64,000 nt of DNA from NCBI GenBank assembly GCA_963773065.1, contig CAVYZN010000009.1, positions 64,001 to 128,000 of the forward strand, written 5' to 3'. The translations under genes were made by a program, and so were the position numbers. Source of the stretch: an uncultured Gammaproteobacteria bacterium (GTDB taxonomy: Bacteria; Pseudomonadota; Gammaproteobacteria; UBA9214). The notes under the pieces were generated by a model. It was not told the origin of the DNA, did no database searches, and saw nothing but the letters and a program-made list of their open reading frames with translations. Positions 32,860 to 54,419 of this stretch are shown piece by piece. The stretch's first letter is position 1. Each line of letters begins with the position of its first letter.

Positions 32860-33895
32860 TTGCGTGATATCTTACTAAGGATGTCACTGGCAATATTCGC
32901 ATTGTTGTTTTTCTCTACTGTTGCGGATGCCAGGCCCGCTCAATATGTACGCCCATATGGTCCCGATGCGCCCTGGAACGTCCTGGTCAAGAACCTGCCG
33001 AGGCACCCACAATCGGCAACTTATGCATCACGCCTATGGTCTGGTGTCGGTGGACAATTTCGATCAGCCGTTCAATGATTACACCTATCCCGTCTATTAC
33101 GCTGATGCGACAGGTAACTACACGGTGAATGGTGGTAATGGCACCATCAATGGTAAGCAGATGCCATGGAATCCGAACATGGTCGGCGGCTGGTGGTTCC
33201 GATGCACAAGTCATCGTGCTGGATCCGGCTACCGGGCGGGAGTGGAACTTGTGGCAGGTCAGTGTTTCGCGGAGCACGATCAATGTTCACAAATGGCAGC
33301 CTTGTTGGCCAGCGGAGACACCGTCCAGTAACAGGCACCGGAAACTACCGCACGAAAGAAAATGGCTGGGCGGGATGCTCGCGGGGTCGGCATTCAGTAT
33401 CTAGCCATGCTGGTGCGACCCGAGGAAATCACGCAGGGTGAAATCCAACATGCCCTGTCGATGCCGATCAGCAATCCAAGCAAGGAGCACTTACGTCGCC
33501 CCGGCCACCAAGCTGGAGCATCTGGCACGGATTCAGGCAATGAAGTCCCGGAAGGCATGCGGTTCGCCATGGATATGACCGATGCTCAAATAAATCCTGG
33601 GTTGCTACCAAACCTGCGGCCTACCAGAAAACTGGCGCGTACCGTCGGCCGTGCACTGCGCGATTACGGTTGGTTTATTACAGATACTTCGGGAGCGGAT
33701 AGTTTCAGTTTGAATCTCAGGCATCGGCCGATGCATTGTGGAAGGCGCAGGGGATCGACCCGGCATCGTCTACAGCGCGAACTGCTGGATGGCCTGATAA
33801 CCCAGAGTCGCATTTATACCATCGTGCCAAGCGATCAGTATCCGAACCAGTCGCTCGCGCCACCCAATCCCCCAACTGGACTTATCGTTAATTAA
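32860..33895 (+). CDS. secreted protein of unknown function, several frameshifts, C-terminal APPNPPTGLIVN tag
   Basis: Signal peptide ...FSTVADA; pieces RPYGPDAPWN, YTYPVYY, SDAQVIVLDPATGREWNLWQ, LVRPEEITQGEIQHAL, ALRDYGWFITD in shifting frames. Confidence 0.6.
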
Positions 33896-34240
33896 AGGCG
33901 ATTGACAATTCTATTTGTAAGTGCTGCCGTGGTTGGTCGGCCAGAGGGCGCAGTAGGTGGCGCCCCCGCGCCGAAGAGAGACGGGATGGGATCTGAGCAC
34001 CTGTAGAGGCAGGCTGCGGCTGTGCCGCGGGATGAACTCGTCACCGGATTGTCAGCATCCCGAGTCTATTCCATCCCAAGTATTGCTGGTCCAAGTGCTG
34101 GATCAGGCCAGTCTGCAAACCTGCATTGCACTAATGCGCGTCAGAACAGAGGCGTGTTGGCCTGCGACATCCCGTAGAAAGGCATTCGCGTTAATAGCCG
34201 TTTACGTTCCAAACAGAATGCAACACTACAGTAGTGTTAG

Positions 34241-35373
34241 TTAGTTGTCGTCGAGATAGGCCGATATCATTATCTTTACGGCCTCTTGTGTGCTGAATCG
34301 TGCATGGACAAACGCCTGCGCCTGCTGTCCCATGTTAGCTGCCTCGACGGGATCGGCGATTAGACGGCGACAAGCACGCAGCAACTGTTCCAAATCGCCG
34401 GGTGGGTAGAGAATCGAGATATCCTCGCAGAATTTCCTGAAATCACTAACGATGTCTGTGGACACCACCGGTATTCCGGAGGCCAGCCCCTCAAGCACGG
34501 ACAAACCGAACCCTTCACTGACCCCTCTAGAGGTGAATAGAAATATGTCTGCTGCCATTAGTAGTAGGCGGACATCTTCGCAAATTCCCAGCATCCTGAA
34601 GCTGCCTTCTCCTAAATTGAGTTCCTTGGCCCGTGCTAGCATCCGCTCTTTCAAGGGCCCGTCACCCGCAACCAGCACCATAACGTTTCCTGGATTCTCG
34701 TTCAACGCAGCCGACAGATCGGGAAGTATCTCCGTTCCTTTGAATTTCCGTAAATGAGATGTACTCACCAATACACGTTTGGACGGAGGAATCCCGAGTC
34801 TCTCCCGCGCTTCCCGCCGTTGTCCTTCACTAAACCGATACCTCTCCGGCTCAACGCCCCTTTCATGTGTGCATATTTTACTCTCACCATGCGAACTCGA
34901 TATCAAACGGTTCTCAATCATATCAAACTGAGAACAATTTTCCGAGTCAAACGCTGCTAACGGTACTGCCAAGTGCGCAGCCAATACCTCGCATCGACGG
35001 AGTGTTATGTCGTGTCGGGAATCTCGCTTGACCTGCGATAACCTCGCGGCCACGAGCCCAGTATTGAGCGTCCGTGCATGGTGCACATGGAGATGGGTTG
35101 CCCCGACTTCTTTAAGAAGCGTTGTAACGCGGCGGACGAAGCCGGCGTCAAATGCATGTCGTACTGGTGAAGCACAACATGAAACTGGGCAGAAGAGTCT
35201 CGAATAAATTCAGTTGAAAGTGACTGATTCTGGAAAATGAAATGGCTGTCGGCGCCACGATCGCTCAAAGCGTGTGACAGTTGAACAAGATAGCGTTCGA
35301 AGCTGCCATATTGCCGGTTGGGCCATCCCATGAGTTGAACAATCGAAGGTTGTTTCTTAAGGTCTTCGTTCAT
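34241..35373 (-). CDS. glycosyltransferase family 4, frameshifted
   Basis: N-terminal YGSFERYLVQLS (35005..35409 frame); C-terminal ADIFLFTSRGVSEGFGLSVLEGLASGIPVV. Confidence 0.8.
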
Positions 35374-35492
35374 ACCGCCTCTCCTGTAACTGGTGAAAGC
35401 ACTTAGCAATTGAATTCTCGCAGGGGCTTAAGTAAATGTTCACCTTTGCTCAAGCTGCATGCAGGTAACCGGTAACCCACCGGCGTTCTTGT

Positions 35493-37089
35493 CTACGCCG
35501 CGGGTGTGCAAGGGCGAGCGCAGCGGATTGGTGGCGAAGAGCTGCTTCCAGAGTCGCGGCGTGAGTTCGTGAACACGGTTGGCCGGATGCTGACCGACGC
35601 GCTGCAAAACGTCGACGAGGTAGTCGTAAGGATCGATCTGGTGCAGCCGGCAGGTCACGATCAGGCTCTGCATGATGCCGACGTGTTTGGCCCCGAGTTC
35701 GGTCCAGCAGAACAGCCAGTTTTTGCGCCCATGGGGATCGCCCGCAGCGCGCGTTCCAGATGGTTGGTATCGATCGGCACATCCGGATCGTTCAGGTAAA
35801 CCTCCAGCCCCAATCGTCGCTCGCGGGCATAGGCCAAGGCTTTGGTCAGCGGATTGCTCGGCAGCAGGCCCTGCGCCTCGAACTGCTGGTTGACCCAGGC
35901 GAAGAACTGCTCGACGATCGGCTTGGCGTGCAGCAAGCGATAGTCGAGCTTCCTGGCGGCCGCCGAGCTTTGAGCTGCGGATGCGCTCTTCCACCGCATA
36001 GAGGCCCGCCGATCAGCTCCAGCCCCCTTGCCGCCGCCTGCGGTTCGGCGCCTTGCGCCTCGAAGAGCATCCGCCGCGTATGCGCCCAGCATTGGGCGTG
36101 GGTGAGCCCGGTCTTCTGCGCGTATTGGGCGTAGGCGCTGTAGCCGTCCGAGAGCAGGACGGCGCCCTCGGCGTGCGTCAGGCCGAGGGCCTGCTCGACG
36201 TGTTCGGCCCGCCGACTATGCGAAGAACGGGAAGCACACTTCGTCGAGTTCGCCATAGACCGGCCAGAAGTAGGCCGCCTTCAGTTTGCCCGGCTCGCCG
36301 CGCCCGGCCTTGATCGGCGTCTCGTCCATCGCCTTGACGCGGGAGGCCCGGATCGAGTCGAACTGTGCCTCGTAGATCGGCTCGAGCAGCGCGATCCCCT
36401 GCTGCCCAATCTGGGTCAGCCACGGCCGGCTGACCGTGATGCCGCTATCGCCGAGGCGCTGGTGCTGGCGATAGAACGGCAGGTGATAGGCGAACTTGTC
36501 AATCAAGCAGCCCGGCGATGAAACTCACGTCGGCGCGGCTGCCGTCGATCACCCCGGCCGGCGCGCTCGGGCAGACGATGATCTGCGTCGCCTTGAGCTT
36601 GATCACCGGCCGCCGGTAATTGAGCACGACGTAGCTGCCCGGACGCTGGGCGAGCCGGTAGCTCTCCTTGTGGCCGATGACCTCGAAGTCTTCCGGCGCG
36701 AGCCCCTCGGCTTCCGGCGCGGCCAGATCGATGACTTCGACCGGCACCCGCGCTCTCGTCGAAGAAGGGCACGCTGTCATCGCCCGTGTCGGGCTGCTTC
36801 GCCGCCAGCTCGCCGCGTATGCGCGGCGACGGGACGCTCACCCGGGGCCGGCGCTGTGGCGCTCTGCTCCCGATGGATTGCTTCACCCAGGCTCAGCTGG
36901 CCATCGGCACCGTCGATGATCCGCCGCTCGCTCTTCTGGCCGAAGAGCTGGCGCTTGAACCAGTCGAGTTGATGCTTGAGGGTCTCGACTTCCTGGCTCA
37001 GCGAGGACATCAGATCGACGACCTGCTGCGGGCTCAAGGCGGCCGCTTCATCGAGGCTGAGACACGCGCGTCGCGGTCGTCGAATTCAT
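35493..37089 (-). pseudogene. tnpC: IS66 transposase TnpC, multiple frameshifts; 3' end approximate
   Basis: LFGQKSER, KFAYHLPFYRQ, MDETP, SDGYSAY, CWAHTRR, IDTNHLERALR, GRKNWLF. Confidence 0.85.
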
Positions 37090-37099
37090 GCAGCGATTA

Positions 37100-37461
37100 T
37101 ACCGAAGGCATCGCTGCCACGGGGGTGTCTGTAGCGCTTTCTGACGCACTTTCGCTTCGATGCCTTCGAGCAGCAGCTTCAGCCCCGTCCAGTCCATCTC
37201 CCGCGTCGTAACCTCACGCCAGTCGGACAGGAATCTTCCCTGCTTCGAGCCGCTTGCGCCCACAGGCAAAAACCGGTGCGGTCCCAGTAGAGCACCTTCA
37301 TCTGCGTCGCGCGGCGGTTGATGAACACGAACAGTCGGCCACTCGAGCGGATCCTGCCCCAGTTCCTGGCGCGTCAGGGCGTACAGCCCATCGTACGATT
37401 TCCGCATGTCGACGGGCCGACCATACACATGCACCCGCACCTGGCCTTCGGGGAAGAACAT
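37100..37461 (-). pseudogene. tnpB: IS66 accessory protein TnpB, frameshifted; 3' end approximate
   Basis: MFFPEGQVRVHVYGRPVDMRKSYDGL...LKLLLEGI. Confidence 0.85.
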
Positions 37462-37773
37462 CAGCTGCGCACCAGATGCAGAATCAGACCGTCGCCGAGA
37501 TCGAGCTTGAGATCGAGCCATGGCCTGGGTGACGATGCGGAATTCAGCGTGCCAAGATCGACGAACGCGGGCGTCGCTTGGTGGGGGATCGCCTCCATCT
37601 ACAGAGCGCCCGTCGCTCAGCAGGCTACGCCAGCGGTAGAAGCTCGCCGCACTGATCGCTTCGCGCCGGCAAAAGGCTTCGACGCCCATGCCGCTGCAGC
37701 TAAATCGCGCCAAGAGTGATCGCCACTCGCTCTGGCTGCGCCGTGACCACTTACCCTTCTTCCGCCCTGCCAT
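37461..37773 (-). pseudogene. tnpA: IS66 TnpA, frameshifted
   Basis: SGMGVEAFCRREAISAASFYRWR; TGATG junction with tnpB. Confidence 0.8.
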
Positions 37774-38087
37774 CGCTTCCGCTCCCGTAGGTGATTCGTC
37801 TCGGAAGCCATTCTCGTCATCGCGTGCGCGAAGGGAAGAACGCCATGGGGTTACCGGTTACGCTACAACAACAGCTACCCCTTTCGCTCCAGAACGGCAC
37901 CCCGGCACGCGAGCCCTATGCCAACATCCGAGATCCAGGTAAGAAATGCGGGCGAGCGCAGGGTGGCGGATCATTGGATATCGCGCGAGGGCATGCGCTC
38001 TTCTTGCGACACGTTTGCCCGTCATGCAGTACGCATCCAGACAACGAGGAGGTTAGCTGTTAGCCAAACTCTCTCAAGTTGCTTCCT

Positions 38088-38900
38088 TTAATGATTCACA
38101 ACTGAATGCGTGGCACGAAGTTTCTTCATCCAGATTACCGCGTAGTTGGCGTACGGTCGCAGGAAAGTGAATTTGTCGAGCAGTACGCGATCGGCTTGAT
38201 GTAATCGCGGGAATTGCCAGCGCCAACCGAGTATCCTTTCCAGCATGCCCAAGAGGTGCATCTCCTGCCAGTGGCACTCATCGAACAACAGACACCAAGC
38301 CTGAATGTCGTCGTAGGTTAATGGGTGATCAGTGCCCCGTGGGGACTTCCTAGAGTATGGCACGTGGTCACGTATGAAGCGTATCAGCGGATTGTTGGCC
38401 AATGGCTCGCTGAACACGGCGACACCACCGATCTTGAGGACCCGGTGCAATTCCATCGATGCCAGCTCTACGTCTAGATGATGGAGTATCGCGAGCCCGA
38501 AACCGATATCGAAAGTTTCATCTTCAAAGGGCAAATTCTCTGCGACTGCCACATGGAAATCGATATCATCTGCAACATTGTTGAGTTCTGCGCGTCTCCT
38601 GGCTATGTTTATGGTCCCCGGTGAAATATCGAAAGCCGAGACTGCTGCCCCACTCTTCGCAAGCAGTACCGATAACTCGCCAGTGCCGCAGCCCATCTCG
38701 ATTACTTTTTTTCCTTCTAGATTACCTAGGAGTTCACCGATTCCCAATAGGTAACTTTCCGTTTTGGTGTGCTCGATAAAATTGGCGTGAGGTGGAAGCA
38801 CAGCCGTATCATCAAGATGAATTTGGCTGGATTTAGCATCAAATTTAGTGCGTTCGATCTGGAACCGATCCTCAAGTTCCAATAGCTTTGGGTTTTTCAT
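38088..38900 (-). CDS. class I SAM-dependent methyltransferase
   Basis: KVIEMGCGTG, FDIS, AENLPFEDETFD, ILHHL, RVLKIGG. Confidence 0.9.
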   Translation of the reverse strand: MKNPKLLELEDRFQIERTKFDAKSSQIHLDDTAVLPPHANFIEHTKTESYLLGIGELLGNLEGKKVIEMGCGTGELSVLLAKSGAAVSAFDISPGTINIARRRAELNNVADDIDFHVAVAENLPFEDETFDIGFGLAILHHLDVELASMELHRVLKIGGVAVFSEPLANNPLIRFIRDHVPYSRKSPRGTDHPLTYDDIQAWCLLFDECHWQEMHLLGMLERILGWRWQFPRLHQADRVLLDKFTFLRPYANYAVIWMKKLRATHSVVNH

Positions 38901-39450
38901 GGTAGTCGACCCATTAAGTTGACGAGAAGGAATTTTACCTGAGGCTCCCATATCATAATGTTATGAGGACTAATTTGTACCACAATTTTGCTGTTTAGTC
39001 ACTTACGTCCTAATGGCAGGATAAAAATCGCCCTTCGCCGCCAGGCCGGGCGCCGGGACGGCGATACCGTCGACTTCCACAACGGCTCCCTAGCTCTGGC
39101 AGAGCTCGCCGAACTTATCTCAAGCTGCAACTCCTGACGCGTCGCTCTGCCTGAACTCTGCGCCCCACCGTCAATCGCACTATCCGGCGCAATACTCAAC
39201 GTCTGTGCGTCGTAAGAAATGGACCCCGATTTTTGGACAGCCGTTTAAGTGTATTCTGCCCACACATCATGCGGCCTGATCATGCTGCAGCAGGCCATAC
39301 TGAACAGTCTTCGTACACCTGATCCGGCGTGTGCTTATCTAGGCTCTGATGTCTGCATTCACGGTTGTAGAACCGGAAATAGTTTCCAATATCCGGACGT
39401 GCCTCAGCAACCGAGTCGTATGCCTTCACATACACCTCTTCATATTTTCA

Positions 39451-40476
39451 TTATGGCAGCAGATGATGTACCCGCAGTATAAACGGCAGGATGGCTAGAC
39501 CCGCACCGATGCCATAGCGACACAGTTCCAGTGGCGGAGTTGACATGGTGCTCGGTCCATCACGAGTAGTAACGGCTGCCTCTATGCCAGAGCTTTCCAG
39601 GAACCTTATGACTGCTTCGTTATAGTCACCGGGCTGTCCGTTCGGGTAAGCGAACAGCCTGCATGGCTTGCCGGTAAGCCGTTTTGTGTCTTCTATGCTT
39701 GATGCAATCTCCTGGCTGGCGCGAGCCTCATCAACACGTGAAAGTATGGTATGAGTGGCCGTATGCGCTCCGAATTCGATCAGGTTGGATGCGGACATCT
39801 CCGCAATGGACTGATTGCCAAGCATACGGAAGTGCGAATCCCTGTCCACCTCTGTAGGAGTGTGTATATCCAATTCCTCACGGATTTCAGCCAGTTTTTC
39901 CAAAAGTTCCTGATGCGGAAGATGCTTCAGGAGGGACTGTAGTCTGGCACTGGCCCTTGCCTTCGAGACGGTATTTGACAGGTCATAAACCTGTCCGCTC
40001 CACGAAAGCTTCTGGTGGATCGTTTCGGAGATTGCCTGGTTCAGCGTGCAAAACCAGACGGTATTTGCCGTGTTTATAAAGGCGGTGTTTAGGAAAACAG
40101 TGGCGGGCAGGCCAAAACGGGACAGGATTGGATAGGCCACATCGTAAACATTCTGGTAGCCATCATCAAAGGTTATGACGGCTGTCGGTTCATTAATACG
40201 ATTCTCCCGCAGGTCCTTCGCAGCCTGGGTAAGCGAAACGACCTTGAGATTTCGGTGCAGATATTCCATCTGACGGGAAAAGTTTTGTTCCGAGATAAAG
40301 CACCAATCGGGTACCGCAAGGGGTATTCTCACCACGCCATGGTACATCAGTATGGCGAGTTTCTTCCTGAAGAAGGTACGATGGAGAAGTCGCGGCTGAT
40401 TTAATATCGCAGGACTGATAAGTATCAGTTCCTCGATTGCGCGCCTGATCTGGTTCGGCAAGTCATGCACCAGCAA
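39451..40476 (-). CDS. polysaccharide deacetylase (NodB family)
   Basis: ILMYHGV, ITFDDGY, FGAHTATHTIL, FAYPNG. Confidence 0.92.
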   Translation of the reverse strand: MLVHDLPNQIRRAIEELILISPAILNQPRLLHRTFFRKKLAILMYHGVVRIPLAVPDWCFISEQNFSRQMEYLHRNLKVVSLTQAAKDLRENRINEPTAVITFDDGYQNVYDVAYPILSRFGLPATVFLNTAFINTANTVWFCTLNQAISETIHQKLSWSGQVYDLSNTVSKARASARLQSLLKHLPHQELLEKLAEIREELDIHTPTEVDRDSHFRMLGNQSIAEMSASNLIEFGAHTATHTILSRVDEARASQEIASSIEDTKRLTGKPCRLFAYPNGQPGDYNEAVIRFLESSGIEAAVTTRDGPSTMSTPPLELCRYGIGAGLAILPFILRVHHLLP

Positions 40477-40496
40477 TTAGGGTAATTCAGTCGTAG

Positions 40497-42278: not shown

Positions 42279-45157
42279 GTGTTGGAGAACAGATTTATGA
42301 TGATTCGTCACTTAATTCAGTCCGGTTTTTCAAAAGTACTGTTATGCGTCATCTTTGCGGTTCAGTTGGTTGCCTGTGGCGGTGGCGGTGGGGGGGGCGG
42401 CAGTACCGGTAGTGGTGCTGCCGACATCGCCAGTGCCGTGGAGGTCAGCGGCAGCGTCGGCGATGGCCCGGTAACCGGCGCCACGATTGTGGTCTATGCA
42501 GACAATGGTGACGAACTTGGCACCATGAGCAGCGACAACACCGCTTCCTTTCAAACCACCGTTAGGGCAAAAGGGCGTGATTACCCGCTGCTCATCAAGG
42601 CCAGCGGCGGCTTTGACCTGGTAACGGGCGATGAACCGGCCTTCGAGATGTTATCGGTGATGATGGGTCCGTTCGGAGCAAGCAGGAGAATATCAATCCA
42701 TTCACGACCCTGATTGTGAAGACGGCGCAATCCCTGCCGGGTGGACTGAATGCGGATAACGTCAGGGCTGCCAAAGACATTGTCATCGACAAGCTGGGAT
42801 TTGGGCTGGACCCGAATCTGGTTCCTGATCCGATTACCACCGCTATCAACGAGTCGAAGGCGGCCAATATCATCAAGGCGAGCGAGGCGCTGGCGGAGAT
42901 GGTGCGTCGCACCCGCGATACGGTTTCCGCCGTTGGGGCGCGGCTTTCGGGTGATGATGTGATGGCGGCGATTGCTGCGGATATGACGGACGGTTTCCTG
43001 GACGGGAAGGGCGCGCGCGGCGCCGATGCGCGTGTGGCCGCCGTGGCCACAGTGGTGTCGTCTCAGGTGCTGGTGGAAGCGCTGGGCAATGCCCTGGAGG
43101 TGGGCGGGGTGGTTGCGACCGGCATGCTGGATGAGGCTATCACCACTACCCAGCCCGGTATTGGCTCATCCCAGCTGACGGACAGTGTGCGCATCAGCGC
43201 GGGCATGCTTGGGCAGACGAAGATTGCGTTGGCGGCCGTGCAAGTGCTGGATTCCAGTTCCCAGGTTGCCGACATCGCGACGAGCGTCAGCGGCATTGCG
43301 CCCAACAGCCTGCCGGCGGACATTGCCGGTGTGTTACCGGCCGATGCCTCGACCTACCTGGACAATGCGGTGGTGCTGTCCCCAACAGCGACGACCGAGC
43401 AAATTGCCGGCATCGGGCAGGCGGTACATGGCACAGGCGGTGGTATCACTCCAGCGCCGGGGAATAACAGTGCACCGGTGATCAGCGGCTCACCGGGTAC
43501 CGCGGTGGTGGCGGGTACGGCCTATGCTTTCCAGCCCAGTGCCAGTGATGCCGACGGGGATACGCTGAGCTTCAGCATCAGCAACAAGCCCGCCTGGGCG
43601 AGCTTCAGCGCCACGACCGGCCGTCTGAGCGGCACGCCCGGGACGGGCAGTGTCGGGAGTTACGGCAACATCGTGATTGCGGTGTCTGACGGGACGGCGA
43701 GCGCGAGCCTGCCGGCGTTCAGCATCCGGGTCGATGCGGCTACTCCTGCCAACAGTGCACCGGTGATCAGCGGCACACCGGGTACCGCGGTGGTGGCGGG
43801 TACGGCCTATGCTTTCCAGCCCAGCGCCAGTGATGCCGACGGGAATACGCTGAGCTTCAGCATCAGCAACAAGCCCGCCTGGGCGAGCTTCAGCGCCACG
43901 ACTGGCCGTCTGAGCGGCACGCCCGGGACGGGCAGCGTCGGGAGTTACGGCAACATCGTGATTGCGGTGTCTGACGGGACGGCGAGCGCGAGCCTGCCGG
44001 CGTTCAGCATCCGGGTCGATGCGGCTACTCCTGCCAACAGTGCACCGGTGATCAGCGGCACACCGGGTACCGCGGTGGTGGCGGGTACGGCCTATGCTTT
44101 CCAGCCCAGCGCCAGTGATGCCGACGGGAATACGTTGAGCTTCAGCATCAGCAACAAGCCCGCCTGGGCGAGCTTCAGCGCCACGACCGGCCGTCTGAGC
44201 GGCACGCCCGGGACGGGCAGTGTCGGGAGTTACGGCAACATCGTGATTGCGGTGTCTGACGGGACGGCGAGCGCGAGCCTGCCGGCGTTCAGCATCCGGG
44301 TCGATGCGGCTACTCCTGCCAACAGTGCACCGGTGATCAGCGGCACACCGGGTACCGCGGTGGTGGCGGGTACGGCCTATGCTTTCCAGCCCAGCGCCAG
44401 TGATGCCGACGGGAATACGCTGAGCTTCAGTATCAGCAACAAGCCCGCCTGGGCGAGCTTCAGCGCCACGACCGGCCGTCTGAGCGGCACGCCCGGGACG
44501 GGCAGTGTCGGGAGTTACGGCAACATCGTGATTGCGGTGTCTGACGGGACGGCGAGCGCGAGCCTGCCGGCGTTCAGCATCCGGGTCGATGCGGCTACTC
44601 CTGCCAACAGTGCACCGGTGATCAGCGGCACACCGGGTACCGCGGTGGTGGCGGGTACGGCCTATGCTTTCCAGCCCAGCGCCAGTGATGCCGACGGGAA
44701 TACGCTGAGCTTCAGCATCAGCAACAAGCCCGCCTGGGCGAGCTTCAGCGCCACGACCGGCCGTCTGAGCGGCACGCCCGGGACGGGCAGTGTCGGGAGT
44801 TACGGCAACATCGTGATTGCGGTGTCTGACGGGACGGCGAGCGCGAGCCTGCCGGCGTTCAGCATCCGGGTCGATGCGGCTCCAGTTCAGACCAGCAGTT
44901 TAACGTTACAATGGACTGCGCCCGTGGCCCGCAGCGATGGAACACCGCTGACCCTGGCGGATATCGACGGCTTCCGCATCCATTACGGGAATTCAGCCGG
45001 TAGCTATACCAATCATGTCACCGTGGCTGATGGTACCGCACAGAAAGTGACCCTGACCGATATCCCCGTAGGTACTTATTACCTGGTCATGACCACCTAC
45101 GATGTGGATGGTCGAGAAAGCAGTTACTCGTCGGTGGTGACCAAGACCATTCAATAG
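42279..45157 (+). CDS. surface lipoprotein A: N-terminal domain + 5 He_PIG/cadherin-like Ig repeats + FN3-like C-terminal domain; frameshift near 42670-42715
   Basis: Lipobox QLVAC-GGGG; GSVGDGPV; 5x NSAPVISG...DADG..LSFSI.NKPAWASF..TTGRLSGTP; LTLQWTAP...GFRIHYG...TYYLVMTTYD..GRES. Confidence 0.85.
43466..44881 (+). repeat. 5 near-identical 285-bp in-frame tandem repeats
   Basis: AACAGTGCACCGGTGATCAGCGGC recurs at 43466, 43751, 44036, 44321, 44606. Confidence 0.97.
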
Positions 45158-45165
45158 TCCTTGCT

Positions 45166-45192
45166 TCCGGGCAGCCGCATAGGCTGCCCGGA
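45166..45192 (+). terminator. hairpin after surface protein A
   Basis: TCCGGGCAGCC-GCATA-GGCTGCCCGGA: 11-bp stem 9 bp after the stop. Confidence 0.6.
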
Positions 45193-45836
45193 CAATAATT
45201 TAAACATCATGTTCTGCCCTCCCTCGAAATAGGATAAGACGGAAGCTATTTTTCATATACATATTGGCATTCTCGTTCGGAACCATACCTGAATCCTGGC
45301 TTTCTCCCGAATTAATGTGCTTAGAAAACTGTCTCCAGCACCATCTGGACAGCTTCAACCGGGATCAAGGATAAACGAATCAAAGCGTTGTACATGGTTG
45401 AAGTAGCATGTTCTATCGGGATTTACCCCGGAACCTTTCATGCACGACTCGTCAAGCTTAGTAACCCATCAAGGTTTTGTTATTCGTGGGTGCATCGCTG
45501 TTTTTTGTAGAGCATCACACTGACTGGAAATTTCCGGGGTCACCACTCCTGAATACGCAATTGCAAAATAAAACCGGGGATAAGAAACGATTTACTCCAG
45601 CGGTGTTTGGTGGTGATGTTCATTAATGACCAGGCATACATATTAAGACAAATCAGTATCCAGCACTTGCCTGTAAATATACGTATCAATTGTTCAGCAA
45701 TGACATCATAACCTTTTCTGTTAGACTGTTACGCGCCCAAGGCCGAATAATTTATACCCGCAATAACGCTTCACGTTAGCTGATCAGTGCTCAGCACGCC
45801 AGCATCAGTCCAGTTTAGCTGTATGCACCCCATGCA

Positions 45837-47282
45837 ATGATGCAAATGAATTTCTACCGTCCCAGGTCTATATTGCGATTGATCCTGACCGGATTCTCGC
45901 TGGTGGCCTTGCCGCTGGTAGCCGGATTGGTTATTGCTACTGTCTCGGTCGACCGTTTGGTCGGGCAGAGCCAGAATGCCCTGCTGCAGAGTGTGCTGGT
46001 AACCCAGGGCAGTCAAGTGCTGGTCGAGGCAATTACCGCCATGGAGCGCAATGCCCGTCAGTATCAGGTTCTCGGCGACAAGGTGTTGTTTAATGTCTAT
46101 GAGGAAAAGCACGCGAAATTTATAGATACCGCCCGCTCGCTCGTTGAGCTGGAGCTGGTAGAGGCCCAGCGCAAGCTTCTTGAGGAACTGCGTGCCAAGG
46201 AAGATGAAGTGCATACCGTTCTTAGTAATAATCCTCATGATGCCCGTGCAACCAAAGCCGCTTTAGCCAGGTTCACCGAACTTGCGCAAACGGCGCAACA
46301 GATCCTGGCTGATAATCAAGGACTGATAAACCGTGGAGTTGAACAAATACAGGGCAAAGCAGAGGAGGTTCAGCGAACGCTGGTATTACAGGCAATCGCC
46401 CTGGTCCCGGCTGCACTACTTCTGGGTATATTCTTTACAGTTCTGATCACTCGGCCTATCAACCAGGTCGATCAAGCGATCCGCCGGCTGGGTGATGGGA
46501 AATTCAATGATCCTGCTATCGTTACCGGACCGCGTGACCTTGAACAACTGGGCGAACGCCTTAACTGGCTACGCCAACGACTGCTTGACTTGGAGCAGGA
46601 AAAGGCTAAGTTTCTCCAGCACATATCGCACGAATTGAAAACGCCACTGACAGCAATCAGGGAAGGAGCGGAATTGATGAATGAACAGGTGGTGGGCGAT
46701 CTGAACACCCAGCAACGCGAAATAGCGGGGATCCTGCGAGACAATAGTCTGCAACTGCAGAAATTGATCGAAGATTTACTGAATTTCAGCATTATGCGTA
46801 CCCGCCCATCGAGTCTTTTCCGCAAGCGGCTGGAGCTGGGGAAAATTATTGTAAACGTGCTCGATGACCACAAGGTCGCCCTACTTTCGCGCAAACTGGA
46901 TCTGCGGACATCCCTGCAGTCAGTCAGGCTGCGAGGTGACAAGGAGAAATTACGTATAATGGTAGATAATCTTGTTTCCAATGCCATCAAGTATTCCCCT
47001 GATGGCAGCCCCTTGTGGGTTTTGTTATTCAAGCGTGATACCCATGCGGTCATCGAAGTGGCTGACGCCGGCCCAGGTATTCCTGTTGCAGATCGTGAAC
47101 GTGTCTTTGAAGCTTTTTATCAAGGAGTACCGGCCGACAAGGGACATGTCAGGGGCACCGGGCTTGGATTGTCTATTGCCAAGGAATACGCTCAAGCGCA
47201 TGGGGGGGATATTACTGTGTTGAGTACCGGGAAGATGGGTGCACGACTTCAGGTTGTTTTGCCGTTGGAACAAAGTTCCTGA
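45837..47282 (+). CDS. glrK: sensor histidine kinase GlrK/QseE
   Basis: RPRSILRLILTGFSLVALPL, MERNARQYQVL, HAMP GPRDL, HISHELKTPL..IREG, HATPase boxes; glrK-qseG-glrR synteny. Confidence 0.88.
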   Translation: MMQMNFYRPRSILRLILTGFSLVALPLVAGLVIATVSVDRLVGQSQNALLQSVLVTQGSQVLVEAITAMERNARQYQVLGDKVLFNVYEEKHAKFIDTARSLVELELVEAQRKLLEELRAKEDEVHTVLSNNPHDARATKAALARFTELAQTAQQILADNQGLINRGVEQIQGKAEEVQRTLVLQAIALVPAALLLGIFFTVLITRPINQVDQAIRRLGDGKFNDPAIVTGPRDLEQLGERLNWLRQRLLDLEQEKAKFLQHISHELKTPLTAIREGAELMNEQVVGDLNTQQREIAGILRDNSLQLQKLIEDLLNFSIMRTRPSSLFRKRLELGKIIVNVLDDHKVALLSRKLDLRTSLQSVRLRGDKEKLRIMVDNLVSNAIKYSPDGSPLWVLLFKRDTHAVIEVADAGPGIPVADRERVFEAFYQGVPADKGHVRGTGLGLSIAKEYAQAHGGDITVLSTGKMGARLQVVLPLEQSS

Positions 47283-47284
47283 TT

Positions 47285-47821
47285 ATGAAGAGATTTATAA
47301 TTCTTCTTGTGATACTTGCAGCTATGTCGACTGCTTGCAGCGAATTGCAATCCTATCGATTTCCCAGGCCCGAGACCGTTATCACAGGCGTGCATGATGT
47401 TGACTATCTATTGATGGAATTGCATGGCACACGCGCCATGAATAAGAGTCAACTGCAACAGACGCTGGAAGCCTGGGAACAGGAATTTCAAGCTGACTCC
47501 AGCCCTGATAATCGGTTGAAATTAGCGCTGCTGTATGCAGCCGGCAAAGAGCCGGTCAGGGACCCTGGACGTGCCCAGGAATTGCTGAATGAGGACGCCA
47601 AAACGCCATCCAATCCCGCGGCACGAGAGTTAGCGGCGTTAGTGCGGGAGTTTCTTGAGGAACAGGTTGAGGTTAACAGGAAGGTCAATGATCTGAACAA
47701 GCAGATAGCCGAGCAGGGCAGGCGCATAGCCGAGCTGGAAGAGCAGCAGCGGGCGTTGATGAGCATTGAGCAGAAGATGCAGCAGCGTGAAGCCCCGGTA
47801 GTGATTGAAAATGACAAATGA
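47285..47821 (+). CDS. qseG: QseG/YfhG-like lipoprotein
   Basis: Lipobox STAC; RLKLALL; C-terminal coiled coil ...QRALMSIEQKM; lies between the kinase and the regulator. Confidence 0.75.
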   Translation: MKRFIILLVILAAMSTACSELQSYRFPRPETVITGVHDVDYLLMELHGTRAMNKSQLQQTLEAWEQEFQADSSPDNRLKLALLYAAGKEPVRDPGRAQELLNEDAKTPSNPAARELAALVREFLEEQVEVNRKVNDLNKQIAEQGRRIAELEEQQRALMSIEQKMQQREAPVVIENDK

Positions 47822-49228
47822 CAAGTATCGAGTGCTACTGGTGGATGATGATCCTGGCCTGTTGCGGCTGTTGTCGATGCGTCTTGCGGCGGCCGGTTAT
47901 GCGGTGACGGCGGTGGAGAGCGGGGAGCGGGCGCTGGCCCAGATACCGCTGCTGCAACCGCACCTTATCATTACTGACCTGCAGATGAACGGCATGGATG
48001 GGATGACGCTGTTCAACCAGGTACACAGCCGCAACCCGTCGCTGCCGGTGCTGATTCTGACCGCGCACGGGACCATACCGGATGCGGTTGCGGCGACGAG
48101 TCGCGGGGTATTCGGGTATCTGACCAAGCCCTTTGACAGCAAGGTGCTGCTGGGGCATGTGGCGCGGGCGCTGAAACTTAGCGGGGAGCTACCGGCGCGC
48201 CAGTCCGATGCCACGCTGGCGGAGTGGCGCAAGGAGCTGGTGACGCGCAGCCCGCTGATGGAGAATCTGCTGACGCAGGCGCGGCTGATTGCCGAGAGTG
48301 ACGCCAGTGTGCTGATACAGGGTCAGAGTGGTACCGGCAAGGAGCTGCTGGCGCGCGCGATCCACCGGGCGAGCGAGCGCGCGGCGGGTGCCTTTGTGGC
48401 GCTGAACTGCAGCGCCATACCGGAGTCGCTATTTGAATCGGAATTGTTTGGCCATGTGAAGGGGGCGTTCACCGGTGCGATGCGCGATCACCCGGGTCTG
48501 TTCCGTGCGGCGGCGGGGGGCACGCTGTTTCTGGACGAGATTGGGGACATGCCGCTGGGTTTTCAGGTGAAGCTGCTGCGGGCGCTGCAGGAGCGCAGCA
48601 TACGCCCGGTGGGATCGACCGAATCCGTGGCGATTGATGTGCGCATTATCTCGGCCACGCATCAGGATCTGGAGCTGGGGCTGCAGGAGAACCGCTTTCG
48701 GGAGGATCTGTACTACCGTTTGAATGTGGTGACGCTGGAGCTGCCCTCTCTGGTTGAGCGGCGCGAGGACATTCCGTTGCTGGCCAATCACTTTCTGCAG
48801 CATTTTCCGGATGCCGAGAAGAAGGGGGTGAAGGGGTTTTCGGCCGAGGCGATGGAGGCGATGCTGTCGGCGCCGTGGCCGGGGAATGTCCGGCAACTCT
48901 ACAATGTGGTGGAGCAGTCGGTGGCGCTGTCGACCACCTCGCTGATACCGGTGAGCCTGGTGCAGCGTGCCTTGCGGGGGGAATCGAGTGAAATACCGGC
49001 GTTTGCCGAGGCGCGCAGCGAATTCGAGCGGGATTACCTGACGCGGTTGCTGCAGATCACCCATGGCAACGTGACCCGGGCCGCCGGCATTGCCAAGCGT
49101 AACCGTACCGAATTCTACAAGCTGCTGCAGAAGCATCATCTGAATCCCGCGCAGTTCAAGTCGGCACCCTCCTGAGGGGGGCCGCGATAGCCAGCCGGTG
49201 TGCACTGAACTGCGGTAATACGCTGAGT
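47616..49228 (+). repeat. 1613-bp duplicated segment, copy 1
   Basis: Matches 51216..52828 at an offset of exactly 3600; 4 substitutions noticed by eye. Confidence 0.97.
47811..49175 (+). CDS. glrR: sigma54-dependent response regulator GlrR/QseF, copy 1
   Basis: [62 protein letters not shown]. Confidence 0.92.
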
Positions 49229-49261
49229 GACATTGGGGTGATTGTGTCTCGCGGCGTAAAG

Positions 49262-49480
49262 TGTCGCTGATTGCTGACAGTATTTGTCGGTTCGGCACTA
49301 ACTGGCTGACTTGGGGCGGCTTTAAGTGTTTCCATATAGAGACAGAGGCGATGAGGAACCGACGCCTTGTACAATTCAGCCCATCGTCAAGTCCGTTTTC
49401 CGCGCGTCCTGGAATTTACAGATATAGAAAAAACAAATAGATAGATTGTCTCCAGGGCGATCTGTCGGGCAATGATAACA
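49262..49480. promoter_or_regulatory. GlrR-type enhancer boxes upstream of surface protein B
   Basis: TGTC-GCTGATTGCT-GACA (49262-79, perfect); TGTT-N10-GACA (49327-44); TGTC-GGGCAATGAT-AACA (49463-80). Confidence 0.7.
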
Positions 49481-49706
49481 GCGCCGAAACCCACGCCCAC
49501 GTGCTTTGGGCGTCCACTAGCTGACGGCGGGCAGATGGCTGCTTCAGCCTCCTGGTAAGAATGCCGGTCCCCTCGACAAATAACCTTTCTAATACACTCC
49601 TAACACACTGTAACAATAGGATAAATCTATTATCTGCGCAGTCCTGGCAGATCTCCAGATCGCCTCGATAGCCCTGCTACGCCAATTTTCATGTGACCAA
49701 AGCAAA

Positions 49707-49722
49707 TGGCACAGTAATTGCT
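49707..49722 (+). promoter_or_regulatory. sigma54 (-24/-12) promoter
   Basis: TGGCACAGTAATTGCT = TGGCAC-N5-TTGC consensus. Confidence 0.85.
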
Positions 49723-49951
49723 AATTTGCTAATACAACTTTTCAGCTTGAAAGCCTGCGAACGCCCCATCCGGGAAGTCCGTTTTCTTCCTTCTGAATGT
49801 GGTTGTTGAACTTTAACTGCAGGCCACGTGCCCAGAGCATCGAGATTGTTGCCACATGCAGTTACCTAGCCGGTGTGATTCACCAGCACTTGTAACGCGC
49901 CCTGACTGCACTTGGTTGCCAAACGAAATGGATCTACCGAGGAACTTATTT

Positions 49952-51200
49952 ATGAATGACACCTTAGTCAATTGCAGGATGACCGCTCAGAATTTGCAAA
50001 CTGGACTTGTCAAAGTGCTACTTATGGTCATTCTTGCGATAGCAAGCCTGCCGGCGTTTAGCGCCTCCAACCGCGCGCCGGTGATCAGTGGTACGCCGGC
50101 AGTCTCGGTGGCAGCAGGGAGTGTCTATACCTTCCAGCCCAAAGCGACTGACGCCGACGGGGATACGCTGAGCTTCAGCATCAGCAACAAGCCCGGCTGG
50201 GCGAGCTTCAACCCTGCGACCGGTCGTATGAGCGGCACGCCCGGGACTGGGAGTGTCGGGAGCTACGGTAACATCGTGATTGCGGTCAGCGACCGCAGGA
50301 CGACGGCGCGCCTGCCGGCATTCAGCATTCGGGTCTTGGCCGCCAACCGCGCCCCGGTGATCAGCGGCACGCCGGCCACTTCGGTGGTGGTCGGCAAAGG
50401 CTATAGCTTCCAGCCGAGCGCCAGTGACGCCGACGGGAATACGCTGAGTTTCAGCATCGTCAACAAGCCCGGCTGGGCGAGCTTCAACCCCGCGACCGGG
50501 CGCTTGAGCGGGACGCCCGGGACAGGCAGCGTCGGGAGTTATGGCTACATCATGATTGGGGTGAATGACGGGAAGGTGGCCGTGTTTCTACCGGTGTTCA
50601 GCATCCGTGTCAATGCCGCCACAACTTCCGCCAATCGCCCGCCGGTGATCAGCGGTACGCCGGGCACCGCGGTGGTGGCGGGGAGTGCTTACAGTTTCCA
50701 ACCCAGCGCGACGGACGCCGACGGGAACACACTGAGTTTTAGCATCAGCAACAAGCCCGCCTGGGCGAGCTTCAGCACCACGACCGGCCGTCTGAGCGGC
50801 ACGCCCGGGACGGGGAATGTCGGTACCTATGGCAACATCGTGATTGCGGTGTCTGACGGAAAGGCGAGCGCGAGCCTGCCGGCGTTCAGCATCCGGGTCA
50901 ATACCGCCATAACTTCGGCCACGACTCGGTTCGGACCGGCAGTTTACTTTGAGCTGGACGGCACCCGTTAAGCGCTCTAACGGCACACCGCTGTCGCTGG
51001 CGGATATCGACGGCTTCCGCATCCACTACGGGAAATCGGCCGGTAGCTATACCAATCATATCAACGTGGCTGATGGTACCGCACAGAAAGTGACCCTGAC
51101 CGATATCCCCGTGGGTACTTATTACCTGGTCATGACCACCTACGATGTGGCTGGCCGTGAAAGCGGTAATTCGTCGATGGTTAGCAAGAACGTTCAATAA
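49952..51200 (+). CDS. surface/secreted protein B: signal peptide + 3 Ig repeats + FN3-like C-terminal domain; frameshift near 50930
   Basis: VKVLLMVILAIASLPAFSA, 3x NR.PVISGTP...GR.SGTP, then SWTAP...DIDGFRIHYG...TYYLVMTTYD. Confidence 0.85.
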
Positions 51201-51215
51201 ACATTCCGGACTGCG

Positions 51216-51421
51216 CCGCGGCACGAGAGTTAGCGGCGTTAGTGCGGGAGTTTCTTGAGGAACAGGTTGAGGTTAACAGGGAGGTCAATGATCTGAACAA
51301 GCAGATAGCCGAGCAGGGCAGGCGCATAGCCGAGCTGGAAGAGCAGCAGCGGGCGTTGATGAGCATTGAGCAGAAGATGCAGCAGCGTGAAGCCCCGGTA
51401 GTGATTGAAAATGACAAATGA
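51216..51421 (+). pseudogene. qseG: 5'-truncated qseG remnant
   Basis: Only the last ~68 codons of the lipoprotein are present; no signal peptide. Confidence 0.85.
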
Positions 51422-52775
51422 CAAGTATCGAGTGCTACTGGTGGATGATGATCCTGGCCTGTTGCGGCTGTTGTCGATGCGTCTTGCGGCGGCCGGTTAT
51501 GCGGTGACGGCGGTGGAGAGCGGGGAGCGGGCGCTGGCCCAGATACCGCTGCTGCAACCGCACCTTATCATTACTGACCTGCAGATGAACGGCATGGATG
51601 GGATGACGCTGTTCAACCAGGTACACAGCCGCAACCCGTCGCTGCCGGTGCTGATTCTGACCGCGCACGGGACCATACCGGATGCGGTTGCGGCGACGAG
51701 TCGCGGGGTATTCGGGTATCTGACCAAGCCCTTTGACAGCAAGGTGCTGCTGGGGCATGTGGCGCGGGCGCTGAAACTTAGCGGGGAGCTACCGGCGCGC
51801 CAGTCCGATGCCACGCTGGCGGAGTGGCGCAAGGAGCTGGTGACGCGCAGCCCGCTGATGGAGAATCTGCTGACGCAGGCGCGGCTGATTGCCGAGAGTG
51901 ACGCCAGTGTGCTGATACAGGGTCAGAGTGGTACCGGCAAGGAGCTGCTGGCGCGCGCGATCCACCGGGCGAGCGAGCGCGCGGCGGGTGCCTTTGTGGC
52001 GCTGAACTGCAGCGCCATACCGGAGTCGCTATTTGAATCGGAATTGTTTGGCCATGTGAAGGGGGCGTTCACCGGTGCGATGCGCGATCACCCGGGTCTG
52101 TTCCGTGCGGCGGCGGGGGGCACGCTGTTTCTGGACGAGATTGGGGACATGCCGCTGGGTTTTCAGGTGAAGCTGCTGCGGGCGCTGCAGGAGCGCAGCA
52201 TACGCCCGGTGGGATCGACCGAATCCGTGGCGATTGATGTGCGCATTATCTCGGCCACGCATCAGGATCTGGAGCTGGGGCTGCAGGAGAACCGCTTTCG
52301 GGAGGATCTGTACTACCGTTTGAATGTGGTGACGCTGGAGCTGCCCTCTCTGGTGGAGCGGCGCGAGGACATTCCGTTGCTGGCCAATCACTTTCTGCAG
52401 CATTTTCCGGATGCCGAGAAGAAGGGGGTGAAGGGGTTTTCGGCCGAGGCGATGGAGGCGATGCTGTCGGCGCCGTGGCCGGGGAATGTCCGGCAACTCT
52501 ACAATGTGGTGGAGCAGTCGGTGGCGCTGTCGACCACCTCGCTGATACCGGTGAGCCTGGTGCAGCGTGCCTTGCGGGGGGAATCGAGTGAAATACCGGC
52601 GTTTGCCGAGGCGCGCAGCGAGTTCGAGCGGGATTACCTGACGCGGTTGCTGCAGATCACCCATGGCAACGTGACCCGGGCCGCCGGCATTGCCAAGCGT
52701 AACCGTACCGAATTCTACAAGCTGCTGCAGAAGCATCATCTGAATCCCGCGCAGTTCAAGTCGGCACCCTCCTGA
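51411..52775 (+). CDS. glrR: GlrR/QseF, copy 2; protein identical to copy 1
   Basis: The ORF track gives identical translations for both copies. Confidence 0.92.
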
Positions 52776-53020
52776 GGGGGGCCGCGATGGCCAGCCGGTG
52801 TGCACTGAACTGCGGTAATACGCTGAGTAGCCTCCCGTTATCGCGAATAATGTCATTCTGAGCGGCATGTATTTGGTCACCGCAGGGATTGCTTAAAGAT
52901 TGATCAGATAGAGATTCCTCTCAAGGCTCGGCGTGCAGCCCGGGATAGGTCGTATTGATAATATTCTCAGTGGGTTCAACAATCCGTCGTTTGACTCTGC
53001 CTTGCGAATGAATTAAGAAA

Positions 53021-53238
53021 CGTCTCCGAATGGAGACGTATTTGCTTAATATATTACTAACTGGATGATGATAATGATTTGTAGTTGTATCAATATGACG
53101 ACAGCTGCTATGAACAAACGCCTTATCCCTCCGCATAGCTTCTCATCTACGCGCAGTACAGCCGTCCTCTCTGAAGATAAATACCATTGAATTTCTGCAA
53201 TAAATTTTCCTCTTTGTAAGTGTCGGGCAGTGGTGACA
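53021..53238. promoter_or_regulatory. GlrR-type enhancer boxes upstream of surface protein C
   Basis: CGTC-TCCGAATGGA-GACG (53021-38); TGTA-N10-GACA (53086-103); TGTC-GGGCAGTGGT-GACA (53221-38, perfect). Confidence 0.7.
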
Positions 53239-53448
53239 GGTTCCAGCGACACCCTGCCGTTCGTTCTGCAAATATTGCCGATTCTGATTGATTTAATAGT
53301 TTTACCAGCTACCTGCAGGGATGGTTCCTTGCTTGAAGCGTTTATAACAAACTGTTATTACGGGAAAAATAGCCATTTATACAGATCTGGCATGTTCTCG
53401 GGTAGCTTCGGCAAGCGCTTACACGCCTTCATCAACAGCTAAATCACA

Positions 53449-53464
53449 TGGCACAGTATGTGCT
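53449..53464 (+). promoter_or_regulatory. sigma54 (-24/-12) promoter
   Basis: TGGCACAGTATGTGCT: GG-N10-GC, nearly identical to the 49707 site. Confidence 0.8.
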
Positions 53465-53686
53465 GATTTATTTATACAGCGTTTCTGTTCGAATTCCGCA
53501 AGCCACACGTTATGAAGATTCGACTTCTTAATTTGCGATGTGGCTATTGAGCGTAACCGCAGGGCGGATTTCTTGGGCCTAGGTTTTTCAGACGCTGCCA
53601 GAGTGTTCTGTATCAGCAGGACTTCTAAAGCATCCTGCTTATATAGATCCCCAATTAAAGCCGTCTTACCAGAGGTGTAGATTCTC

Positions 53687-54419
53687 ATGAGAAGCATTTT
53701 ACTCGACGAAAAATTGCTGCCCCGGTTTATTCGCACCGGTATTGTCAAAGCCTTGGTTACCGTCGCTCTTGCAGTCCAGTTAGTCGCCTGTGGCGGTGGT
53801 GGTGGCAGCGACACCGCATCTGGCGCCAGCACCCCCAATGTAACCTCGAACGGCTCTACTCCTGCAACCAGCAACGGCACCCCCAGCACCCCCAAGTAAC
53901 TTCGAACGGGTCTACTCCTGCAACCAGCAACGGCACCCCCAGCACCCCCAGCACCAGCCAGCACCCCCAGCACCCCCAGCACCCCCAGCACCCCCAGCAC
54001 CGCCAGCACCCCCAGCACCCCCAGCACCGCCAGCACCCCCAGCACCCACAGCACCCCCAGCACCCCCAGCACCCCCAGCACCCCCAGCACCCCAGCACCC
54101 CAGCACCCCCAGCACCCCCAACAGCAACAGCAGTGCATCATCCGCAACCGGCACTGGCAGCCTGAGTTTGAATTGGGTTGCTCCCACTACCCGTGCCGAT
54201 GGAGCCCCGCTGTCCCTGGCGGATATCGATGGTTTTCGTATCCATTACGGGATATCAAGTGGTAACTATACCAATCACGTCAATGTGGCTGACAGTACCG
54301 CACAGAAAGTGATCCTGAATAATCTTGCCGTGGGTACCTACTACATCGTCATGACGACATACGATATCAATGGGCTGGAAAGCAGCTACTCGGTGGTCGT
54401 TAAAAAGACGGTCTCCTGA
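53687..54419 (+). CDS. surface lipoprotein C: lipobox + Pro/Ser/Thr stalk + FN3-like C-terminal domain; frameshifts within repeats
   Basis: AVQLVAC-GGGGG; (CCC AGC ACC)n; SLSLNWVAP..DG.PLSLADIDGFRIHYG...TYYIVMTTYD. Confidence 0.8.
53827..54120 (+). repeat. two ~57-bp repeats followed by a 9-bp microsatellite (about 20 units of CCCAGCACC)
   Basis: Visible directly; variant units GCC/CAC and some 8- or 10-bp units. Confidence 0.95.

Follow-up and report, generated by a model that had tools for sequence, protein, structure and literature searches.

The window analysed here, a stretch of 64,000 nucleotides, is part of contig C9 of a metagenome-assembled genome (33 contigs, 3.84 Mb, 91% complete and 6% contaminated), and it encodes a secreted protein, referred to below as the cargo, that ends in what is, judged by its sequence, a genuine FN3 strand-A peptide, together with three further secreted proteins (A, B and C) that each end in an FN3-like domain from which strand A is missing. 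We favour the reading that the cargo tail and the end domain constitute a natural split-FN3 docking pair, with true docking in trans, and hold its chance to be close to even though slightly below it. According to this reading, the exported tail would lie alongside strand B of the end domain in antiparallel orientation, its PPNPP segment would pack on the B-C loop, on strands F and G and on the conserved Trp, and the trans beta-strand complementation would complete the sandwich and so tether an enzyme to stalk proteins of differing lengths, in the setting of an exopolysaccharide locus governed by a sigma-54 two-component system.

The open reading frame (ORF) that stops at position 33895 ends in ...SDQYPNQSLAPPNPPTGLIVN-stop, and the C-terminal tail itself, APPNPPTGLIVN, is encoded at 33857..33892 on the + strand. 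The 12 best among the 120 cargo homologues listed (P0001-P0012) are all tail-ended and finish in [NDI][QVK][ST][LM]APPNPP[ST]G[LI]x[VA]N-stop or a closely similar sequence, with end points that fall within 0-3 residues of one position; ten of them end in APP[NM]PP[ST]G[LI]x[VA]N, and P0002 and P0008 represent shorter variants. In an alignment of these 12 tail-bearing proteins, which are 56-66% identical to P0005, the positions A358, P359, P360, P362 and P363 are invariant and S356, L357, N361, G365 and N369 are at least 90% conserved (n = 12 in both cases). As the conserved end is shared by intact homologues, the tail represents the natural C-terminus and, from this alignment, appears to be under purifying selection. 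Asn is the last residue of every tail-bearing protein, including the shortened variants (..GLN and ..IMDN) and the distant P0051 (..LRLMN). The tail is, moreover, more than a chance match, given how rarely its motif and coding pattern turn up (once across the six frames of the genome, and in a real frame in only one of 401 sampled genomes of the class).

That the tail is an artefact, i.e. the product of truncation by the nearby IS66 element or of assembly errors, we regard as scarcely credible: the gene does contain ~10 frame changes and IS66 remnants do lie 1.5 kb downstream, yet intact homologues from other sources share both the end residue and the peptide, and P0005 is identical to the window cargo across the last 17 residues (100% identity). 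The notion of a truncated gene was rejected for the same reason, namely that intact homologues finish with the same peptide.

The identification of the tail as strand A follows from P0126, a canonical FN3 relative (245 bits against the fn3 profile, best stretch at profile positions 2-82), which reads '...TPPNPPTGLSV-TATGDGS-VDLSW...' in cis. The cargo tail corresponds to the first part of this stretch and the N-terminus of domain C, 'SATGTGS-LSLNW', corresponds to the remainder, and because both match the same protein the pair resembles one FN3 fold that has been cut in the A-B turn. A preceding reading of the window, made from the sequence only, had proposed that the cargo ends in an FN3 A-strand segment, and this was borne out, the tail being conserved across its clade and equal to the in-cis strand A of P0126. 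In the AlphaFold2 monomer of P0005 the predicted local distance difference test score (pLDDT) is 78.9 overall and below 50 for residues 359-369, and the tail is accordingly predicted to be free in the cargo monomer.

In the case of the end domain, a tblastn search of the 3.84-Mb genome with the end of protein A recovered four copies, i.e. the ends of A (match span 44861-45154), B (50943-51197) and C (54153-54413), plus that of a protein on contig C17 (an intact ORF of 415 amino acids, L001:2376-3623); three copies lie within 9-20 kb of the cargo gene. The domain copies of the window, all on the + strand, were delimited at 44891..45154 (A; fn3 22.6 bits, profile positions 6-79), 50943..51197 (B; tblastn) and 54153..54416 (C; tblastn and AlphaFold2, this being the modelled copy). 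All four start with [SF][LT]xLxW[TV]AP, continue through GFRIHYG, TYYLVMTTYD and ES..S, and are located at the extreme C-terminus; the start SL.L.W.AP that the sequence-only reading had given for all three window proteins applies to A and C, whereas B reads FTLSW. Directly ahead of the domain the junctions read 'AAPVQTS', 'SAQTGT' and 'SATGTG'. Protein A has 'SIRVDAAPVQTS' between its He_PIG repeats and the domain, a similar junction is found in B and in the C17 copy, and in C a low-complexity Ser/Thr/Pro stalk takes this place; a P.PP..L.V segment upstream of the end domain was found in none of A, B, C and the C17 copy.

Domain C was modelled with AlphaFold2 from a 61-row alignment, with 20 upstream residues included. 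The model has a mean pLDDT of 86.7 (core >90) and contains six strands, which we assign to B, C, C', E, F and G; no strand was placed in the upstream 20 residues, and strand G is present at 101-105. The earlier proposal that these proteins end in a domain without strand A thus agrees with the absence of the motif upstream and with the model of the domain alone, in which none of the six strands is A. A Foldseek comparison with the PDB returned FN3 domains as the best matches (probability 1.00, E ~2e-3), with template-modelling (TM) scores of 0.48-0.64 when normalised to the query and of up to 0.68 to the target, and a profile search of PDB sequences with the domain gave weak FN3 and PKD matches only (best 7e-5). 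The Pfam fn3 profile (PF00041, cut-off 25) scored A, C and the C17 copy at 22.6, 21.7 and 21.0 bits, all below the cut-off, with matches that begin at profile position 5-6, and an 83-amino-acid piece of B had no match to it at E up to 0.01. These sub-cut-off scores and a sandwich of six rather than seven strands (A-B-E / C'-C-F-G without A) place the domain outside PF00041. It shares with canonical FN3 the B-to-G strand order, the Trp of strand B, the Tyr of strand F and the best structural matches, but differs in having no strand A and a B-C loop that is ~9 residues longer and carries a conserved R-x-D-G-x-P-L-x-L-x-x-I-x-G.

The domain family comprises 7748 cluster representatives at E up to 1e-3 and 1078 at E up to 1e-10 (1.84 billion searched), and its members are annotated as 'hypothetical protein' in the sources. 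A motif scan identified 165 instances in 116 of the 150 best representatives, and in each case the strand-A motif was sought in the 28 residues upstream. Among the instances with a long B-C loop (W.AP..R.DG.PL.L..I.GY.I.YG, n = 115) it was present in one by a strict definition and in five by a loose one, versus eight and 20, respectively, among those with a short B-C loop (n = 50), most of which show a P..P segment by eye. From these counts, loss of strand A accompanies the conserved insertion in the B-C loop, and the long-B-C-loop, strand-A-less FN3 is, at the sequence level, a distinct and very common subfamily, a conclusion that stands even if the docking reading is wrong. Many of the long-loop members are small lipoproteins in which the domain begins ~10 residues past the lipobox (e.g. 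P0150), and in nine related genomes the domain ends at most three residues from the stop in 26 of 26 ORFs.

To model the complex, residues 49-369 of P0005 (22-row alignment) were combined with domain C (61 rows). The interface score ipSAE was 0.75 in three of three runs and 0.00 for the best of three controls; the mark applied to this score is reached by 58 of 80 solved complexes and by two of 110 mismatched pairs, counts that apply here only approximately, since own alignments were supplied to the model. The runs shared at least 79% of their contacts and the pLDDT of the partner was at least 78. In the modelled interface the cargo contributes residues 357-369 only, and these face strand B (residues 22-29), the B-C loop (31-46), strand F (81-89) and the F-G loop with strand G (93-103) of the domain. 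The pairs with the lowest error (367 with 25 and 24, 366 with 26, 365 with 27, and 363 with 27-29) follow an antiparallel course, the usual orientation of strands A and B, and the modelled PPNPP packs on Trp26 and Pro29 as well as on the B-C loop and strands F and G. The geometry of strand complementation that had been proposed from sequence is therefore reproduced in the model, in which the tail occupies the strand-A position (0.75 versus 0.00); this expresses the confidence of a model rather than a measurement, and for a split copy of so familiar a fold such a pass may be fold memory. In the model, the end of the tail also approaches the Lys-rich terminus of strand G (VKK, domain residues 101-103) to within contact distance; that the terminal Asn makes a carboxylate/Lys contact there, or even a covalent link, is pure speculation.

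The reservation about fold memory leads to the contender that has to be weighed most carefully, namely that the end domain is an autonomous six-stranded FN3 variant in which the long B-C loop compensates for the absent strand, that it serves as a matrix- or polysaccharide-binding module or as a spacer, and that the tail is unrelated to it, being a conserved remnant of an FN3 module since lost, or else a handle for another partner. We consider this a real possibility, albeit one clearly short of even. The modelled complex would then reflect the memory of a fold, and the modelling tool itself warns that split genes can pass through fold likeness. Furthermore, the monomer model is confident without any donor strand (core pLDDT >90), and most of this huge family is found where there is no tagged protein. 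Finally, the cargo relative L096 reads 'ALPAPTGIGLQV...' and continues into a full immunoglobulin-like (Ig-like) domain, and with relatives that carry whole Ig-like modules after the core, truncation offers a ready origin for the tail. Nevertheless, a vestigial and disordered tail should drift, yet conservation reaches at least 90% at ten of its last 14 positions, in proteins with 56-66% identity, and all 12 homologues end within 0-3 residues of one point. An orphan strand A beside four domains that lack precisely that strand, at one locus, would have to be a coincidence, and the controls of the complex model remained at 0.00.

Several observations weigh against docking in trans, among them the distribution of the two partners. 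The domain is present in 28 of 54 genomes of the order, usually in several copies, and the cargo in one of the 54. Setting this genome apart, the domain was found in 27 of 53 and the tagged protein in 0 of 53, so that the proposed co-occurrence of tag and domain did not hold; since the domain is widespread without the cargo, it does not depend on this cargo. A search with P0005 found the cargo in 0 of 4 genomes of the same genus (88-100% complete), three of which have the domain. Within the genome, one tagged ORF faces four domains, and the tail motif occurs once in all six frames, so that the cellulosome-like scaffold with multiple cargos that the sequence-only reading had put forward is not supported. 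Among 401 genomes sampled from the class, the coding pattern of the tail occurs in three, of which only that of the present genome is in a real frame and two are spurious. Neither the tail (0/160) nor a domain in the flanks (0/160) was found at 160 cargo-family loci (80 from metagenomes and 80 from species genomes), of which the sole tail-clade locus, L003, ends with its contig before the tail, and a viral scan yielded five cargo-family loci, none with tail or domain. In 20 neighbourhoods of domain genes from nine related genomes, three of 1729 ORFs fit a loose regular expression for the tag, none of them convincingly. To this is to be added that the complex score may reflect likeness to solved FN3 domains instead of binding, that all four window genes (cargo, A, B and C) are out of frame as assembled, that the site at which cargo and domain would meet could be the periplasm or the cell surface, that the spacer in the sigma-54 element ahead of the cargo gene departs from the standard (one base over the consensus), and that gene A has no sigma-54 element within two mismatches.

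The cargo gene (32881..33895, + strand) was delimited by frame-by-frame comparison with the metagenome protein P0002 and specifies a product of ~340 amino acids with a signal peptide. As assembled, it contains ~10 frame changes between these positions; its ungapped in-frame pieces share 70-100% identity with P0002 (71-100% when only the true-frame parts are counted), and the pattern of breaks looks more like assembly indel errors than like decay. The family is uncharacterised and counts 292 homologues among longer proteins. No Pfam or NCBIfam family could be assigned: P0005 has no Pfam match at E up to 0.1, and neither have the two longest in-frame pieces of the window gene at E up to 0.01. 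There was likewise no fold match in the PDB at E below 1, and a protein atlas search returned unnamed clusters only. The family also occurs on viral contigs (five loci, L196-L200, and one atlas cluster).

The core of the cargo ends at a boundary that reads ...RIYAIVPSDQYP, after which its relatives bear varied modules. These include SLH in P0045 and P0104 (22.8 and 22.9 bits, cut-off 20.8), CBM96 in P0017 (283 bits, above cut-off), a weak dockerin in P0083 (19.4 bits, below the cut-off of 22.9), a weak sorting domain of the type IX secretion system (T9SS) in P0075 (25 bits versus a cut-off of 27) and, by precomputed Pfam assignments, RTX repeats, PKD and Big_9 modules in further relatives; by eye, P0016 has a PEP-CTERM-like end and others have Cys-rich ends. 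Short basic 'LRARP' ends are seen as well among the relatives P0013-P0120. Because varied end modules occur at one position, the C-terminus of the cargo family is, on these assignments, a swap site for anchoring or targeting modules, which is consistent with a docking role of the tail. The carbohydrate-binding modules of the relatives in turn suggest that the core acts on polysaccharide, and the core is probably an enzyme active on polysaccharide, given the CBM96, SLH and comparable modules in which relatives end. Irrespective of whether the docking reading is right, this family with its C-terminal swap site is an uncharacterised, enzyme-like and secreted one.

The same variety of ends could also be taken to mean that the tail marks the protein for sorting or processing by an export or attachment machine (compare PEP-CTERM, LPXTG and the T9SS C-terminal domain), given that relatives carry sorting signals at the same position (the PEP-CTERM-like end of P0016 and the weak T9SS domain of P0075) and that the tail invariably ends in Asn. 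In C-terminal sorting signals, either a motif precedes a hydrophobic helix and a basic end, or the signal is a folded domain of ~80 amino acids. The cargo tail, by contrast, is short, i.e. 12-17 residues ending in ...TGLIVN, has neither a hydrophobic helix after the motif nor a basic end, and no cognate machine was identified, all of which makes this explanation very unlikely.

Another explanation starts from the domains, which might polymerise by mutual strand exchange into a pilus- or fibre-like structure, with the cargo tail being incidental or acting as a cap. Incomplete Ig-like folds are a hallmark of strand-exchange fibres (PMC4789730), and two of the proteins are lipoproteins, like type V pilins. 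However, neither A, B and C nor 114 of the 115 long-loop instances contain a donor-strand-like segment, the 91%-complete genome has no usher or PapD-like chaperone, and the domain occurs only once per protein, at the end of long multidomain chains, so that we regard a fibre as highly improbable.

The favoured docking pair would share its working principle, donor-strand complementation, with the chaperone-usher pili. In those pili it is the last strand (G) that is missing, the N-terminal extension of the next subunit or the PapD chaperone acts as donor and a polymer results, whereas in the proposed pair the missing strand is the first (A) and G is present, the donor would be the C-terminal tail of an enzyme-like protein, and the product would be a 1:1 tether, with no sign of a polymer. 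Searches of the genome for the usher (PF00577) and the PapD-like chaperone (PF00345) gave 0 matches, with positive E. coli controls, and an N-terminal donor extension motif as in chaperone-usher subunits was seen in none of the end-domain proteins. In the case of type V pili, donor-strand polymerisation following the cleavage of N-terminal strands has been proposed (PMC4789730). These pili (FimA/Mfa, Bacteroidota) resemble the window system in their lipoprotein precursors and in a groove left by an absent N-terminal strand. They differ in that a protease cleaves off an N-terminal strand that was first synthesised, whereas strand A of the window domains is never encoded, and in that a two-domain pilin fold builds a fibre, whereas the window end domain is a single FN3-like module according to the model and Foldseek.

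The likeness to cohesin-dockerin pairs is that a small C-terminal docking module of an enzyme binds a module that is repeated on anchored scaffold proteins. Dockerin is a folded calcium-binding module of ~60 amino acids that binds a face of the complete cohesin, whereas the proposed 12-residue tail would join the fold of its partner; moreover, a cellulosome takes many cargos and the window system one. No cohesin was found in the genome, which sets the pair apart from the cohesin-dockerin class. Closest in principle are engineered split Ig-like domains and tag/catcher pairs, in which a peptide supplies one strand and rebuilds the fold, although these are man-made, unlike the natural and separate genes of the window. 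Dutta and co-workers reportedly described in 2005, going by the title of their article, the complementation of FN3 fragments in vitro. An open-access literature search with limited terms returned no title or abstract on a natural FN3 strand-complementation docking pair.

If the docking reading is true, it would describe a new bacterial means of hanging an enzyme on an envelope scaffold, in which the receptor fold is finished by 12 residues of the cargo, and it would extend donor-strand complementation beyond fibre assembly to enzyme tethering. It would also provide a function for an FN3 subfamily of exopolysaccharide loci that is very large and has no name, and a small natural tag/receptor pair for protein engineering. 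A still broader reading would make the long-B-C-loop, strand-A-less FN3, with its thousands of cluster representatives and its constant place at the C-terminal end of lipoproteins and Ig-repeat stalks, a general 'catcher' of the bacterial envelope and strand-A-ended proteins its 'tags', by which enzymes would be held on stalks of defined length, with the window pair as the first recognisable example; we consider this unlikely.

The proteins that carry the end domain are all encoded on the + strand and differ in architecture. Protein A (42279..45157; profile search and translation) has a lipobox signal, an N-terminal region of ~390 amino acids without a family match (a 144-amino-acid lipobox ORF and the first 250 amino acids of the main ORF), five He_PIG repeats and the end domain, and contains one frameshift near 42690-42716. 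Its five He_PIG repeats are in tandem (43466-44905, 285 nucleotides each) and share 93-99% DNA identity, a level suggestive of recent expansion or of a collapse-prone assembly. Protein B (49952..51200), the start of which was derived from the intact C17 paralogue, has a Sec signal, three He_PIG repeats that are 76-82% identical to those of A, and the end domain, with one frameshift near 50930-50950; the C17 protein likewise has a plain signal peptide and three He_PIG repeats. Protein C (53687..54419; translation) consists of a lipobox signal, a Ser/Thr/Pro repeat stalk and the end domain, with at least two frame changes. Its gene contains a 56-nucleotide tandem duplication (53833-53944) and irregular repeat units (53833-54163), and its 9-nucleotide repeats encode (Ser-Thr-Pro)n in the frame of the signal peptide, with two exceptions in spacing, one of 10 and one of 16 nucleotides, as a consequence of which signal peptide and end domain are in different frames. 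A lipobox (LVAC, by eye) is present in A and C only, the signal peptide of B and of the C17 copy being plain, so that the description of the stalks as lipid-anchored in the sequence-only reading applies to A and C and not to B.

Sigma-54 promoter-like elements precede three of the four genes on the + strand. The element upstream of B (TGGCACAGTAATTGCT, 49707..49722, i.e. TGGCAC-N5-TTGCT, 230 nucleotides ahead of the gene) is one of six exact N5 sites in the genome. The one upstream of C (TGGCACAGTATGTGCT, 53449..53464, found by pattern search) has one mismatch and lies 223 nucleotides ahead of the gene. That upstream of the cargo gene (TGGCAC-N6-TTGCT, 32512..32528) resembles the element of B with one extra spacer base, is one of five N6 sites in the genome (both strands) and is situated in an indel-rich region. 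Promoter-like elements ahead of the cargo gene, B and C make their co-regulation plausible on sequence grounds, and the earlier suggestion of co-regulation thus finds some support for these genes and none for A. One other exact N5 site lies ahead of a porin-like ORF, after which come PII-like and Amt-like ORFs (names taken from their translations), an arrangement that fits a classic sigma-54 operon. Identical exact sites (TGGCACAGTGGTTGCT) are furthermore found at C29:2678 and C30:13206, ~0.9-1.0 kb upstream of near-identical ORFs with a signal-peptide-like start, taken by eye as MipA/OmpV-like outer-membrane proteins; this pair may represent a duplicated region or strain redundancy of the assembly.

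With respect to the wider locus, the region 29.7-41.7 kb contains exopolysaccharide-type genes, i.e. three GT4 glycosyltransferases (one split), a GT2 synthase, a polysaccharide deacetylase and a methyltransferase, and these are interrupted by IS66 remnants at 35.4-37.8 kb, ~1.5 kb downstream of the cargo gene. Frame breaks are densely clustered at 32800-37800, with intact genes adjoining, which may be local assembly error or decay; a GT4 glycosyltransferase in two ORFs (34241-35086 and 35005-35409) lies within this patch, and TnpB_IS66, DDE_Tnp_IS66 and IS66 C-terminal pieces are scattered across several frames at 35440-37773. Between 42.3 and 54.4 kb, the genes for A, B and C are interleaved with a sensor kinase (45837-47282, +), a small lipoprotein (47285-47821, +), both identified by family profile search, and a sigma-54-dependent response regulator (47805-49175, +) that scores 627 bits against a GlrR-like profile (cut-off 763) and 375 bits against that of the PEP-CTERM-box regulator (cut-off 502.6), in both cases below the cut-off. 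The response regulator gene is present twice in the window (second copy at 51405..52775, +) because a segment of 1613 nucleotides has been directly duplicated (47616-49228 equals 51216-52828 at 99.75% identity). The duplicated segment comprises the 3' end of the small lipoprotein gene and the entire response regulator gene, and gene B lies between the copies; the duplication may be real or an assembly artefact. Immediately downstream of gene C, on the opposite strand (54695-56578, -), lies an intact gene for a 627-amino-acid membrane protein that is a fusion of VTT/DedA, PAP2 phosphatase and LssY_C.

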